Below, in pieces: positions 43,884 through 49,668 of a DNA stretch of 64,000 nucleotides. The notes beneath the pieces were generated by a model, which saw only the letters and a list, made by a program, of their open reading frames with translations, did no database searches and had not been told where the DNA came from. Within the stretch, counting starts at the first letter, position 1; each line of letters opens with the position of its first letter. This DNA is from Verrucomicrobiota bacterium (GTDB lineage Bacteria > Verrucomicrobiota > Verrucomicrobiia > Opitutales > Cerasicoccaceae): assembly GCA_039818205.1 (NCBI GenBank), contig JBCBUK010000003.1:1-64000 (forward strand), given 5' to 3'. The position numbers and the translations under genes were made by a program.

Positions 43884-45104
43884 ATGCCTAAACTAACCGA
43901 CAAACAGCGAACCCGAGCATTCATCTGGATGCTCCTCTCCGTACCACTTGGAGGGGCTGGAGTGGACATGTATCTGCCATCGCTTCCGGTCATGGCTCAC
44001 GATATGGCGGCGACTGATTTCGCAATCCAGTCGACGGTTTTGATCTATTTAATCGCTTACGGGCTCGGGCAGATTTTTGCGGGCCCATTGGTTGATGGCT
44101 TTGGTCGACGGATTCCCGCAATTCTGGGGGCCTTGCTCATGGCGGTCGCGAGCGTTGGTATTACCCAAGCGGATTCGATTGCCTTGGTTTTGGTTTTGCG
44201 CGTGTTTCAGGGAATTGGTGGCGCATTAACTGCGGTAGCAGCACGCTGCGTGGTTCCAGATTGCTACGCGGGCATTGAGCGGGTTAAGGCGGCAAACTGG
44301 ATGTCAATCGCTTGGGCATGTGGTCCGATTCTTTCGCCGGTTCTCGGCGGCTATTTACAGGAGTGGTTCAACTGGCACGCGACGTTTTGGGCGCTGGGCG
44401 GCTGGTCGATCCTGGTTATGGTGACCGCTTGTGTGCTGCTGCCAGAGACGCATCCACAAGGCCGTGATTATAGCCTTCGCTTTGATTTTGGCGGGCCGAA
44501 GGCAATGTTGAGTGATCGCACCTACCTCTATGCATCGTTGGCAATGGGCGGTGTGATTACGGTGATCTATTCGTTTGAGGTGTTGGCGCCGTTCTATATC
44601 GAGATCGATTTTAAGCATTCACCGATCTATTACAGTCGCGTTCAGTTGTGTCTCGGCCTCCTCTGGCTCGCCGGAAATTTGGCCAATCGTTTCCTGCTCA
44701 AAGTCGCTGGTGACCAGCTTCGTATTTACCTCGCAACATTGATCGGAGTTGGGGTTGCTGCCGGGATGATTGTCGGGGATCTAAGCGGATTCTACAGCTT
44801 GTTGTGGATCGCAATACCTTCCAGTATCATCTACTTTAGTGCCGCTACAATCTGGCCAAATTTATATGCCATCTGCCTGGGGCGATTTCCCAATGCTGGC
44901 GGATCGGCCAATGGATTAGTCAGCGGCATGTTCAACCTGATCAGTGCGCTGTTCTCGGTGAGCGGTGCCTTGCTGCATTCGGCGACTGCGTGGCCGCTCT
45001 GGACCCTCTATCTCGTGGGGCTTGGGGCCGCGGGTGCCATATTTGTGTTTGCGCTTCGTTCAACGCTGCAGGCCGGGATCGCCAAGATTGAAGAGGTCCG
45101 TTGA
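43884..45104 (+). CDS. Bcr/CflA-type MFS efflux transporter
   Basis: DMYLPSLP, GPLVDGFGRR, LRVFQG and LPET motifs. Confidence 0.9.
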   Translation: MPKLTDKQRTRAFIWMLLSVPLGGAGVDMYLPSLPVMAHDMAATDFAIQSTVLIYLIAYGLGQIFAGPLVDGFGRRIPAILGALLMAVASVGITQADSIALVLVLRVFQGIGGALTAVAARCVVPDCYAGIERVKAANWMSIAWACGPILSPVLGGYLQEWFNWHATFWALGGWSILVMVTACVLLPETHPQGRDYSLRFDFGGPKAMLSDRTYLYASLAMGGVITVIYSFEVLAPFYIEIDFKHSPIYYSRVQLCLGLLWLAGNLANRFLLKVAGDQLRIYLATLIGVGVAAGMIVGDLSGFYSLLWIAIPSSIIYFSAATIWPNLYAICLGRFPNAGGSANGLVSGMFNLISALFSVSGALLHSATAWPLWTLYLVGLGAAGAIFVFALRSTLQAGIAKIEEVR

Positions 45105-45113
45105 GGACGATAT

Positions 45114-45145
45114 AAAACCCTGCTGGGCCGTAAGCCCAGCAAGGT
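45114..45145 (-). terminator. Terminator after the Cys-rich micro-ORF
   Basis: Minus strand ACCTTGCTGGGC-TTACG-GCCCAGCAGGGT followed by TTTAT. Confidence 0.75.
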
Positions 45146-45156
45146 CGATATGTTGG

Positions 45157-45231
45157 TTACTTGCAGCCACAACCGCAGCAACCACATTCGCAGCCCGTAC
45201 AGGCCTGCGGATTCGTTGTGTTTTCAATCAT
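45157..45231 (-). CDS. Metallothionein-like micro-peptide, 24 aa, MIENTTNPQACTGCECGCCGCGCK
   Basis: Translated by hand, ATG to TAA; 7 Cys in the last 14 residues; A-rich leader, upstream operator and downstream terminator. Not in the ORF track. Confidence 0.72.
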   Translation of the reverse strand: MIENTTNPQACTGCECGCCGCGCK

Positions 45232-45247
45232 TGTTTTATCTGATTTT

Positions 45248-45267
45248 ATATAGATATCTGTCTATAT
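45248..45267. promoter_or_regulatory. ArsR-type operator upstream of the micro-peptide
   Basis: ATATAGA-TATCTG-TCTATAT, a 7-6-7 inverted repeat. Confidence 0.75.
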
Positions 45268-45281
45268 GTTGGTTAAAATAG

Positions 45282-45590
45282 TTAGCAGCAATCGCACAGC
45301 TTATGTGCCTTCTTTTGATTTGGAGCAATTTTCACGAGGAGCTCCCCGCAGCAGTTAACCACGGCTGACTGGTTAACCTGGTAGTATACCATTTTGCCGT
45401 GCTGCTCGCGGTTCACCAATCCAGCCTCTTCCAGAATTGCAAGGTGATGACTGGCGGTCGGTTGCGTGACCTGCGCCTGCTCGGCGATCTCGCCAACCGA
45501 CTTTGATTGGCAGCAGCAGAAACGTAAAATCCGCTGTCGCGTAACATCCCCAAGGGCTTTCCCAAACACGGCTGCTTGTGTTTCATTCAT
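45282..45590 (-). CDS. ArsR/SmtB family metalloregulator, Cys-rich
   Basis: ALGDVTRQRIL and QPTASHHLAILEEAGLV HTH; CCC, NCCG and terminal CDCC. Confidence 0.93.
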   Translation of the reverse strand: MNETQAAVFGKALGDVTRQRILRFCCCQSKSVGEIAEQAQVTQPTASHHLAILEEAGLVNREQHGKMVYYQVNQSAVVNCCGELLVKIAPNQKKAHKLCDCC

Positions 45591-45596
45591 AACAAC

Positions 45597-45624
45597 ATCA
45601 TATAGATGTTTATCTATGAGTCAA
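45597..45624 (-). promoter_or_regulatory. Leaderless sigma70-type promoter of the ArsR gene with embedded operator
   Basis: Minus strand TTGACT-N16-TATGAT-N6-ATG; operator ATATAGA-TGTTTA-TCTATGA at 45600-45619. Confidence 0.75.
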
Positions 45625-47292: not shown

Positions 47293-47757
47293 ATGACATC
47301 ATCGATGAATAACTTGAACCCAAAACAGCCTATTGGACTTACCCTGGTCGAGGTGATGATCGGAATGACCATCTTGGGTATCGTCATTGGATCTAGTCTT
47401 TTGGCGGTCGTTCAGGTTAGGGAATTGAATTATCGTTCCGACGCGACGCGGGGAGCCTACACGGCTCTCAATGGTGAGCTTGAGAATTTGCGCACCCAAA
47501 CATTCGCGCAGCTTTCGGCGAGTGTTACGTCAGCAGATGCGAACGCGACATCAAGCACTTCGACATCGACTAGCTCAATTAATGGGGTCTCTTACAACGT
47601 TTCTCGAACGCTGCAGTTCGAGGATTCGGCGAAGGAGATCGTCCTCGCAAACGTAATGATCACATGGACTTTCGGCGATCGAGAATCGAGCATCACCGGT
47701 CGCTCTCTATTTACCATCAATGGATTATCAGACAAAAAGTTTAGCACGGCCAACTAG
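47293..47757 (+). CDS. Minor pilin/pseudopilin, PilV/GspI-like
   Basis: G|LTLVEVMIG class III signal; ELENLR. Confidence 0.85.
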   Translation: MTSSMNNLNPKQPIGLTLVEVMIGMTILGIVIGSSLLAVVQVRELNYRSDATRGAYTALNGELENLRTQTFAQLSASVTSADANATSSTSTSTSSINGVSYNVSRTLQFEDSAKEIVLANVMITWTFGDRESSITGRSLFTINGLSDKKFSTAN

Positions 47758-48268
47758 GTTATTGCGCAAAGGGTTTTCTTTTCCCGAGTTAATTATCGCG
47801 ATGGCGATCTTCGGTTTGGTAGCTGGCGGAGTTTCAGCGACTTTTATTGCATTCAGTCAAGGGCTTCGCCTCTCCATGATACACGCTGAACAGGCTGCGG
47901 ATGCTCGCTACGCCTTCGAGTGGATCAACAAAAAGCTACACTCAATCAGCGAGCCCCATATCGCTTCATCTGCTAGTTTTGAATTTACAACCGCGGATTT
48001 GGATGGGACCGCAGAGCGCATCAGGATTCATTATGACTCCAATGATGATGAGCTTAAGAGCACAGAAGATGGTAGTACAAGAGTACTCCTTGAAAATGTC
48101 AGTTCCGCCAGCTTCACCTACTATGATCGCTTTGGTGCGGTTACCAATACGTTGATTGACATCAACGCTGCCAAATTGGTGATCAACACTGAAGTCGCCA
48201 CGAAAGCCGGGGCAAACGATGTTAAGACTGAGACCTCAATAATTACTTTTCGTAATCGCACCTTTTAG
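47720..48268 (+). CDS. Minor pilin/pseudopilin, PilW/GspJ-like
   Basis: G|FSFPELIIAM; LLENV...FTYYD...FRN. Confidence 0.85.
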   Translation: MDYQTKSLARPTRLLRKGFSFPELIIAMAIFGLVAGGVSATFIAFSQGLRLSMIHAEQAADARYAFEWINKKLHSISEPHIASSASFEFTTADLDGTAERIRIHYDSNDDELKSTEDGSTRVLLENVSSASFTYYDRFGAVTNTLIDINAAKLVINTEVATKAGANDVKTETSIITFRNRTF

Positions 48269-48270
48269 CC

Positions 48271-49668
48271 ATGAAAAATCGATCAGAGAATGGTTCTGTC
48301 ATTGTATTGGCAATGATCTTTGGAACAGTCGCCGTATTGGCGATAACCTACCTTGGTAGTTCACTCGCTACCGAATACAAGACGACTGTTCGATACGGTC
48401 TTGGATACACCGCCTTTCACTTGTCCGAATCCGGTGTGGAATTGGCGATGTATGCGATCACGAACGAAGAGCTAGGCGATTCTGATTGGCCGAGTACGGG
48501 TGATCAGACTTGGACTTTCACCGATAACACCCCCGTTGGGCAGTATGCTTCCAATACCCGGGTCCGTGTTATCAATAATGGTGATGGAAGTTATCTAATA
48601 ACGGCTCTTGGAAGCGTCGACCTCGGATCCAATCCAGTTCAGCGAGCGGTTGAAACCGTGGTGCAACAGGGGTTAACCGAGGAACAGGAGGAAGATGGGA
48701 CGGGCTCAGGCGCCTTTGACTATGGCTTGGTCGCTAAAGATGCGATCAAACTGAACCACAATAACCCTGGCATGAAGATCGCCAGCTACGATAGTGACGT
48801 CGATTTCGGTGTGCCCGAATTTGGAGTCAACACAGGCTTTGACGTGACCGTTGCAACGCCATCGACTACCGATAATGCGATTAAAGTTAACAATGCCTAC
48901 ATCACCGGATCAATCCGCAGTGGTGGTGGTAGCATTGACTATTCTAATAGCCACCCGCATGACCCGTTCCAAAACGCGATTGTCCTGGGCCCAGACTCAA
49001 CCCAAGCACATGGGGTTGACCTGAATCGTCTTTCAATCGACTTCGACGGTGAAGTGCCTGATCCAGATTTGCCCACCCAGGAAGGCTATAACGTTTTAAG
49101 CTTCGACCAAAATTATTGGCAAAACAACCAAGATATCGAAATCGGTTCCACGAATAGTTCCACCTGGGTTTCCACCGAACGCGTTAACACAAATGCACAG
49201 GGTACGCTGACAATTCGCGGTGAGGTTGTGATTGATGCACAACGCAACCTGAACCTGGCCGCTGATATCGTTATCGAGCCCGGAGCAACCCTGATCGTTA
49301 TGGCAGGGGAGAACATCCATGTGAATGCCAGCAGTATTGCCCAGCAGTACCCGTCTCAGTTTCAGTTGATCGCAAAATCGAACCGAGACGTCGTGCTGAA
49401 TAACTTTGATGTATTCACCGGTGTGGTGAATGCGCCGAACTCAAATGTTCGTCTGGCCGGGGTAGGTGGAACGCCCAAAAGCCAGTTTCGTGGCGCGGTT
49501 ATCGGCAAGAATATTGAGGTCACGAACGGGACCGAGTTCTACTATGATGTGAACCTGGGTGATGGTGGCTTCGACAATTCTGAAGATGGCGGCCTGGGCA
49601 CCGTTCCAGTCGGTGAACTGGAGCTAGTGAGCTGGGCAGAAGTTTCGCCTTCCCGGGCATTTGATTAA
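48271..49668 (+). CDS. PilX/GspK-like pilin with large C-terminal beta-solenoid domain
   Basis: G|SVIVLAMI without Glu5; AFHLSESGVE; FTGVVNAPNSNV...FRGAVIG...YYD; terminal SWAE. Confidence 0.82.
   Translation: MKNRSENGSVIVLAMIFGTVAVLAITYLGSSLATEYKTTVRYGLGYTAFHLSESGVELAMYAITNEELGDSDWPSTGDQTWTFTDNTPVGQYASNTRVRVINNGDGSYLITALGSVDLGSNPVQRAVETVVQQGLTEEQEEDGTGSGAFDYGLVAKDAIKLNHNNPGMKIASYDSDVDFGVPEFGVNTGFDVTVATPSTTDNAIKVNNAYITGSIRSGGGSIDYSNSHPHDPFQNAIVLGPDSTQAHGVDLNRLSIDFDGEVPDPDLPTQEGYNVLSFDQNYWQNNQDIEIGSTNSSTWVSTERVNTNAQGTLTIRGEVVIDAQRNLNLAADIVIEPGATLIVMAGENIHVNASSIAQQYPSQFQLIAKSNRDVVLNNFDVFTGVVNAPNSNVRLAGVGGTPKSQFRGAVIGKNIEVTNGTEFYYDVNLGDGGFDNSEDGGLGTVPVGELELVSWAEVSPSRAFD

Follow-up and report, generated by a model that had tools for sequence, protein, structure and literature searches.

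The window analysed here is a stretch of 64,000 nucleotides (nt) from contig JBCBUK010000003.1 of a Verrucomicrobiota bacterium of the family Cerasicoccaceae (assembly GCA_039818205.1). Its minus strand carries a two-gene unit of about 510 base pairs (bp), in which a promoter is followed by arsR, a 50-nt spacer, a 24-codon open reading frame (ORF) for a cysteine-rich candidate metal-binding peptide, and a terminator, with two operators along the way (Table 1). An earlier sequence-only reading of this DNA had described a Cys-rich ArsR just upstream of a minus-strand micro-ORF for 24 residues with seven Cys in Cys-X-Cys and Cys-Cys arrangement, the palindromes ATATAGA-N6-TCTATAT and ATATAGA-N6-TCTATGA, and a terminator behind the second gene. 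All of these elements were found again, the micro-ORF and the two palindromes, one before each gene, exactly as quoted. It had also stated that no efflux pump, reductase or methyltransferase belongs to the unit, and this was confirmed. In Pfam and NCBIfam searches, the convergent neighbour is a Bcr/CflA-like MFS gene, and the divergent one encodes a beta-helix protein.

Table 1. Features of the arsR and micropeptide unit, with positions in the window.
Feature	Position	Strand	Description
arsR promoter	45597..45624	-	-35 TTGACT, 16-nt spacer, -10 TATGAT; 10/12 consensus matches
operator O1	45602..45617	.	ATAGA-N6-TCTAT inverted repeat; takes up the whole promoter spacer, overlapping the -10
arsR	45282..45590	-	ArsR/SmtB-family repressor, 102 residues, 8 Cys
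operator O2	45250..45265	.	ATAGA-N6-TCTAT in the 50-nt spacer between arsR and the short ORF; ends 19 nt before the ATG of the short ORF
short ORF	45157..45231	-	24 codons plus stop; encodes MIENTTNPQACTGCECGCCGCGCK
intrinsic terminator	45110..45146	-	14-bp GC-rich hairpin, then UUUUAUAU

Based on profile searches, the regulator is a clear member of the ArsR/SmtB family: it scored above threshold with Pfam HTH_5 (PF01022; E-value 5e-14; 52.3 bits, cut-off 22) and with NCBIfam NF033788 (79.3 bits, cut-off 55). AlphaFold2 modelled it (mean predicted local distance difference test score, pLDDT, 93) as a winged helix with the order H-H-H-H-E-E-H, that is, alpha1-alpha2-alpha3-alpha4-beta-beta-alpha5 (segments H3-13, H16-24, H32-38, H45-55, E59-64, E67-72 and H74-88, and a short H93-98). 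The eight Cys fall at positions 25-27, after alpha2, at 80-81 in the middle of alpha5, and at 99, 101 and 102 in the C-terminal tail. A search of the PDB with ArsR returned no close solved relative, the best match (E 1.3e-12) covering the helix-turn-helix core only.

The peptide MIENTTNPQACTGCECGCCGCGCK has its seven Cys (29%) at positions 11, 14, 16, 18, 19, 21 and 23 and contains neither His nor an aromatic residue. In a six-frame scan of the 4.85-Mb genome, this short ORF (sORF) was the only one that combined an ATG start and a length of 12-45 residues with a minimum of 6 Cys and a Cys share of 28% or more. Orthologues of the regulator are rare. Among 61 close relatives, eight had some ArsR at E ≤1e-10 and clear orthologues occurred only in G008 (76% identity) and G059 (46%); a class-wide sample of 401 genomes yielded one, the window's own genome; and an order-wide sample of 401 genomes yielded five, namely the window genome (G000), G008, G059, G512 and G517. 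The five carriers are marine Verrucomicrobia. The synteny check suggested by the sequence-only reading, a search for Cys-rich sORFs behind homologous arsR genes, was positive at all five loci: a poly-Cys ORF starts 50-66 nt past the arsR stop codon in each. The peptides from the other carriers are MKETTKSKCSCQCGCCECGCDKCGC (G008), MSEENQAPCTCSCGCCCSCK (G059), MSKEDIKNCCCDCDCNCDCNCK (G512) and MSDENIKKDECCCDCGCKCCC (G517). The five are 20-25 residues long, with Cys counts of 7/24, 9/25, 7/20, 8/22 and 8/21 (29-38%). Their Cys are arranged in Cys-X-Cys and Cys-Cys motifs, and F, W, Y and H are absent. Small size, a high Cys content arranged in such motifs and a lack or scarcity of aromatic residues are traits of classical metallothioneins.

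Several lines of comparison indicate that the sORF is very probably a real, as yet unannotated protein-coding gene. The alignment of the five peptides has six invariant Cys columns, TGC and TGT interchange synonymously at Cys codons among the orthologues, and in four carriers (G008, G059, G512 and G517) a near-perfect AAGGAGGTGA-like Shine-Dalgarno sequence precedes the sORF at the right distance. A profile built from the peptides recovered four of the five carriers in the order sample (G517 was missed; the window copy scored E 1.2e-6) and matched nothing in the remaining 396 genomes of that sample or in 400 other genomes of a phylum sample. It is extremely unlikely that the sORF is instead a chance frame in the 3' untranslated region of arsR: it is very short, its window copy lacks a Shine-Dalgarno sequence and the peptides are in no protein collection, but its frame, ATG, stop codon and six Cys columns are kept although the carrier ArsRs are only 46-76% identical, and to this are added the synonymous codon changes, the strong ribosome-binding sites and the uniqueness of the sORF in its genome. 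No Rfam family matched the locus, except that the terminator gave a chance hit of 16.5 bits, where 46.6 is required. Shine-Dalgarno-like motifs were not enriched in the window genome (13% before 2348 long ORFs vs 15% at random positions, in a crude test that took the first ATG of each ORF). The antisense strand of the sORF is also an open frame, because Cys codons give no stop codon in the reverse complement, but it has neither a start codon nor a ribosome-binding site.

That standard annotation would miss the gene had been foreseen, and it does so consistently. The peptide matched no Pfam or NCBIfam family at E ≤1, and an exact look-up among the roughly 15 billion predicted proteins of one collection found none of the five peptides; ArsR is present there.

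The regulatory signals are repeated across the carriers. By eye, the five arsR promoters follow the pattern TTkACw-16 nt-TAyGwt, with an operator in the spacer and 6-9 nt from the -10 to the ATG (6 nt in the window), and no ribosome-binding site precedes arsR at any of the five loci. With so short a distance, the arsR mRNA of the carriers is probably leaderless, which fits the missing ribosome-binding site. The ATAGA-N6-TCTAT repeat occurs twice in the window against 0.00 expected from 100 shuffles, and with at most one mismatch there are exactly two sites at each of the five loci. The O1-type site stands 12-14 nt before the arsR ATG in four of them; in G517 it overlaps the ATG, with a degenerate copy in the promoter spacer. 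The O2-type site lies between arsR and the sORF in all five, 19-33 nt before the sORF ATG, so that the claim that the peptide gene carries its own operator copy holds throughout (at ≤1 mismatch). We suggest that arsR is autoregulated through the inverted repeat in its promoter and that the peptide gene is likewise under repressor control, for which O2 would either govern an internal promoter of low strength or stop transcription that reads through from arsR. Genome-wide (4.85 Mb), there are 51 sites with at most one mismatch and three exact ones, two at the module and the third at C12:1663-1678, in an AT-rich spacer beside an integrase-like ORF fragment. A wider ArsR regulon was considered and rejected; two of the sites outside the module were inspected, the one beside that integrase-like fragment and one in the interior of an ORF.

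Downstream, the unit is closed by the terminator, whose 14-bp hairpin and U-run fold at -25.9 kcal/mol (z = -4.85; none of 200 shuffles was as stable) and which faces the convergent MFS gene ending at 45104. By eye, a hairpin with a T-run also follows the sORF in G008, G059 and G517. This position bears on the suggestion, very unlikely in our opinion, that the sORF is a regulatory or precursor element, that is, a Cys-responsive ribosome-stalling attenuator or a precursor that is processed into a modified or secreted product, such as a ribosomally synthesized and post-translationally modified peptide (RiPP) or a metallophore. RiPP precursors do include short Cys-rich ones, but none of the five loci has a conserved maturase, radical-SAM enzyme, protease or exporter beside the sORF, and no segment resembling a signal peptide is visible in the five peptides. 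The RiPP candidate was set aside, the flanks of the five loci sharing no family and including no maturase-like one. Polycysteine attenuators are documented in the mycobacterial leaderless sORFs described in bioRxiv 10.1101/834739, which are also unannotated, very short and Cys-rich; as described there, these act by ribosome stalling as the first cistron of cysteine-metabolism operons, whereas the present sORF is the last cistron and lies behind ArsR operators. With a terminator and a convergent gene directly after it, there is nothing to attenuate, and the attenuator candidate was excluded on its last-cistron position and the terminator.

The unit is self-contained, as the flanking genes differ in all five genomes. 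They encode an MFS transporter and a beta-helix protein in G000, a heparinase-like and a beta-helix protein in G008, a HAD/ACT phosphatase and an SDR in G059, a CMD-family protein and an outer-membrane efflux protein in G512, and an MIP channel, GAF and 2TM proteins in G517; no similarity was found between the beta-helix neighbours of G000 and G008. A DNA search over 5 kb in five related genomes gave as its sole match the module itself in G008 (69% over 378 nt), and the composition around the module showed no clear anomaly. Carriers are scattered: one of six genomes in the window's genus, one of seven in the genus of G512, and, in the complete families, one of 15 (the family of G512) and two of seven (that of G059), without additional ones. 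So patchy a distribution points to an accessory module subject to frequent loss or transfer. The sequence-only reading had allowed that the sORF might be just the tail of a deleted longer gene, such as arsM or a permease gene; however, when the five loci were searched by tblastn with ArsM and ArsI, no match was better than E 0.18, and an origin as the scar of arsM, arsI or a permease gene was rejected. Scans of metagenomes and genome collections with ArsR patterns returned 65 loci, of which L012 is the G059 locus again and none of the others has the peptide. At a loose threshold, seven other small Cys-containing ORFs were found (L004, L006, L027, L040, L045, L052 and L072); none lies directly behind arsR, and that of L052 belongs to its ArsR, of which it forms the tail in the same frame.

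Two further observations on gene neighbourhoods should be mentioned. In G517, the MIP-family channel gene (L079:232-852, minus strand) is found some 650 nt upstream of the module, on the opposite strand; channels of this family are an arsenite entry route in other bacteria. In the window, the plus-strand ORFs at 47293-47757 and 47720-48268 have short hydrophobic N-termini resembling prepilin or pseudopilin signals, and the third consecutive ORF (48271-49668, plus strand) has a hydrophobic N-terminal stretch, all judged from the translations only.

To what the regulator responds is suggested mainly by its relatives. The collection scans gave 45 ArsR relatives with 41-60% identity (L011 and L016-L059). 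In a tree of 51 ArsRs, which included 40 distinct sequences of the 45 (identical or short ones were left out), the five peptide-linked ArsRs and the 40 relatives form one clade with support 100/99, separate from further ArsRs encoded in these genomes, and the 40 relatives form a clade of their own with support 92/97. The downstream gene was classified at 30 of the 45 loci. Near-duplicates (L031, L049, L056 and L057), loci at which only a short ORF was found (L023, L033, L034, L043 and L046) and loci with a contig end or without a downstream ORF (L025, L038, L047, L054, L058 and L059) were left out. All 30 classified genes are arsenic genes, and there is no cation pump or known metallothionein among them. 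Based on NCBIfam, 23 encode ArsM (20 above the curated cut-off and three cut by contig ends), five ArsI/CadI (all above the cut-off), one an ArsO-like protein and one an ArsK-like protein (both below the cut-off). The clade of relatives is, by this gene context, an arsenic-associated ArsR lineage. Since the nearest relatives of the window ArsR precede arsenic genes, trivalent arsenic is favoured as its effector.

The sensory cysteines only partly follow this lineage. The C80/C81 pair in alpha5 is common to both groups, in five of five peptide-linked ArsRs and, at the two positions, in 36 of 45 and 45 of 45 relatives. A wider protein search gave 536 ArsR homologues at E ≤1e-20; the 34 closest clusters (P0002-P0035; 55-76% identity, P0003 46%) nearly all end in a Cys-rich tail. 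Taking in a few clusters beyond these (P0042, P0046 and P0047), such a C-terminal tail was noted in about 33 ArsR clusters other than P0002 and P0003. It should be noted that the arsM-linked relative L052:196-501 ends in the Cys-containing tail KDCCSDK, which makes a C-terminal CC compatible with an arsenic context. As to the lineage L011 and L016-L059 in general, it combines a CC(C) right after alpha2 with the mid-alpha5 CC pair. Its Cys arrangement may be a further uncharacterised arsenic-sensing site, because these positions match none of the five As(III)/MAs(III) site types of PMC11868830, compared by description.

The same comparison by description (PMC11868830) sets the Cys of the window ArsR (25-27, 80/81 and 99/101/102) apart from the R773, AfArsR, CgArsR, SpArsR and ArArsR site types. 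The sequence-only reading had likened the regulator to the AfArsR type. In the type 2 As(III) site of AfArsR, as PMC11868830 describes it, a vicinal pair and a third Cys a few residues on lie where antiparallel C-terminal helices end; against this description, the window ArsR has its vicinal pair in the middle of alpha5 and its further Cys 18-21 residues later in the tail. The likeness is a partial one, the vicinal pair being in mid-alpha5 and the extra Cys forming a CxCC at the extreme C-terminus.

Based on the above results, the peptide is probably an ArsR-controlled chelator that holds a metal(loid) by its thiolates, its most likely role being that of a minimal metallothionein-like sponge. 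That its ligand is arsenic we hold tentatively, at slightly less than an even chance, and the full statement of a self-contained sensor-and-sponge module with arsenic included is likewise put forward as something just short of evenly balanced.

A number of observations weigh against this reading. With regard to expression, the window sORF, unlike the other four, is preceded only by an A-rich leader without a Shine-Dalgarno sequence, and, by eye, O2 is surrounded by poor -35 and -10 elements, so that an internal promoter there would be weak. With regard to the arsenic link, the classification of downstream genes covers only 30 of the 45 relatives, and the peptide-linked ArsRs sit at the unresolved base of the clade, outside the arsenic-linked clade, with monophyly in 24% of bootstraps. 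Their cysteines differ as well: the CC after alpha2 is present in 45 of 45 and 44 of 45 arsenic-linked relatives but in three and two of the five peptide-linked ArsRs, while the C99-x-C101-C102 tail is found in all five of the latter and, position by position, in 1/45, 0/45 and 0/45 of the relatives. Because of these differences in the sensory Cys, the effector of the peptide-linked ArsRs may have changed, and other soft metals are possible. A peptide with seven Cys would bind Cu(I), Cd, Zn or Hg as well, and the nearest known peptides by size and Cys count, as given in PMC13107397, are fungal copper and cadmium metallothioneins. Finally, ACR3 is present in two carriers, G008 and G512, more than 1 Mb from the module.

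These points lead to the main rival of arsenic, in which one of the soft cations Cu(I), Cd(II), Zn(II), Hg(II) and Pb(II) would be both sensed and sequestered by a minimal SmtB-SmtA-like system; on balance we consider this somewhat unlikely. It would account for the CxCC tail of the five peptide-linked ArsRs, which has at most one counterpart per position among the 45 arsenic-linked relatives, and for the relaxation of the CC pair that is invariant in them. In sequence, CgArsR and the regulators SmtB, CadC, CzrA and CmtR stand at about the same distance from the window ArsR. Fungal Cu(I) and Cd metallothioneins of like size are described in PMC13107397, with about six Cu(I) for seven Cys and a small one with eight Cys. 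Arsenic is preferred to the cations on the grounds that every one of the 30 classified downstream genes of the relatives is an arsenic gene, without a cation pump or metallothionein, that the alpha5 CC pair is shared with the arsenic-linked relatives, and that the peptide has no His ligands.

Two other functions were considered for the peptide. It might serve the sensor as a metallochaperone or buffer that passes metal to or from the CxCC tail of ArsR, or set the induction threshold, for which ArsD and SrnQ-type partners provide a model. This is unlikely, but it is in keeping with the strict co-occurrence of the peptide and the ArsR orthologue across 401 genomes, with the resemblance of the C-x-C-C tail, specific to peptide-linked ArsRs against the 45 relatives, to the motifs of the peptide, and with a regulon that appears to be the gene pair alone. 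What speaks for a sponge over an accessory of the sensor is the strong ribosome-binding site of the peptide gene in four carriers as opposed to a probably leaderless arsR, which suggests that more peptide than repressor is produced, as a sponge would require. Still less likely, though conceivable, is a thiol buffer against reactive sulfur species, electrophiles or oxidants, with ArsR acting as a BigR/SqrR-like Cys redox sensor. The vicinal Cys pairs would be able to form di- or polysulfide links, and the regulator has a weak similarity to the NCBIfam BigR model (E 1e-8, 35 bits, far under the cut-off of 155); however, the loci have no BigR-type neighbours such as sulfur-oxidation or sulfite genes, the partner genes of the relatives are arsenic genes, and a seven-Cys peptide is a poorer redox buffer than low-molecular-weight thiols.

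It speaks for the proposed chelator that no other arsenite pump came to light in some of the carriers: no ACR3, ArsB or ArsK was detected in the window genome, which is 99.97% complete, and no ACR3 or ArsB in G059 or G517. The window genome has one ArsC-family gene (C18:39797-40123) and an ArsM-like frame in two pieces (C3:104474-105184; about 108 bits each against a cut-off of 263). As two of the five carriers have a distant ACR3, the module is not simply a substitute for a pump.

We propose the following course of events for the module. In the absence of an inducer, an ArsR dimer would occupy the two identical 5-6-5 palindromes O1 and O2 and keep both genes off, the part of O2 being to shut a weak internal promoter or to stand in the way of read-through. 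A thiophilic metal(loid) would then bind to C80/C81 and the CxCC tail, perhaps with C25, and the repressor would leave the DNA. Upon derepression, the 24-residue peptide would be made and its seven thiolates would chelate the same species, lowering its free concentration until ArsR rebinds, which would close a negative feedback loop. The ligand would most likely be trivalent arsenic, with one As(III) per three thiolates and up to two per peptide; methylarsenite, taking two thiolates each, is an alternative, and Sb(III) is possible.

The closest precedent in design is the SmtB-SmtA type of repressor and metallothionein pair, although in the smt locus the two genes are arranged divergently. According to PMC12193353 and PMC8790569, SmtB-SmtA of Synechococcus PCC 7942, BxmR-BmtA and AzuR-NmtA likewise consist of an ArsR/SmtB repressor and, without a pump, a small sequestering protein rich in Cys, which the repressor gates by binding an inverted repeat in the promoter region. 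The remark that SmtA is about twice as long and uses His too agrees with PMC12193353, which gives 56 residues with Cys and His ligands, whereas the present peptides have 20-25 residues and no His. The genes here are in tandem with two operators, the host phylum is Verrucomicrobiota, and the nearest relatives of the window ArsR are arsenic-linked and not zinc-linked. The BmtA/SmtA family PF02069 had no match in the peptide or anywhere in the genome, while a Synechococcus control was positive.

Other small metal-binding peptides can be compared with the present one, no relationship in sequence being shown for any of them. MymT, the small copper metallothionein of Mycobacterium, initially escaped annotation. 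It has about twice the length of the present peptide and is not known to be under an ArsR-family repressor. It is described in PMC12193353 as a small bacterial Cys-rich metal binder that also stands outside the BmtA family. The size of the present peptides recalls the small fungal metallothioneins. These are eukaryotic, with another type of regulation and no sequence relationship shown to the peptide, and have about 24-26 residues. The copper metallothioneins of Neurospora crassa and Agaricus bisporus (seven Cys, about six Cu(I) bound) and the metallothionein of Heliscus lugdunensis (eight Cys) share with it the order of size, the Cys-X-Cys motifs and the all-thiolate character, as described in PMC13107397.

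Within arsenic biology, operons such as ArarsRMC of Arsenicibacter rosenii (PMC11868830) resemble the module in that an autoregulated, Cys-sensing ArsR precedes an effector gene on the same strand, as is the case for the arsR-arsM and arsR-arsI type in general; the effector here is a 24-residue peptide and not an enzyme or a pump. The routes of As(III) detoxification listed in PMC11868830 are efflux, transformation and "intracellular chelation (in eukaryotes)". The chemistry proposed here, intracellular As(III)-thiolate sequestration, is that of phytochelatins and eukaryotic metallothioneins (PMC8041291, PMC11868830), but phytochelatins are made enzymatically from glutathione, while the present candidate would be a ribosomal product with a dedicated repressor. 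In the literature outside subscription journals, judged by titles and the opening of abstracts, we found no ArsR-controlled Cys micropeptide gene in prokaryotes.

If the peptide does bind arsenic or another soft metal, it would represent a new, non-homologous and extremely small family beside the few bacterial metallothioneins, and it would mean that gene callers systematically overlook such genes, as illustrated by the absence of all five peptides from the 15-billion-protein collection. The module of about 510 bp, with two genes and two operators, would then be an attractive minimal part for biosensing or bioaccumulation. In its most far-reaching form, which we regard as quite possible although not yet probable, the proposal is that bacteria have ribosomal, repressor-gated arsenic chelators, that the peptide is the smallest prokaryotic metallothionein, and that the module provides a stand-alone sense-and-sponge answer to As(III) or methylarsenite where no arsenite pump is detected, in which the CxCC tail of ArsR may exchange the metalloid with the peptide. 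Prokaryotic arsenic biology would thereby gain a sequestration branch next to efflux and methylation.

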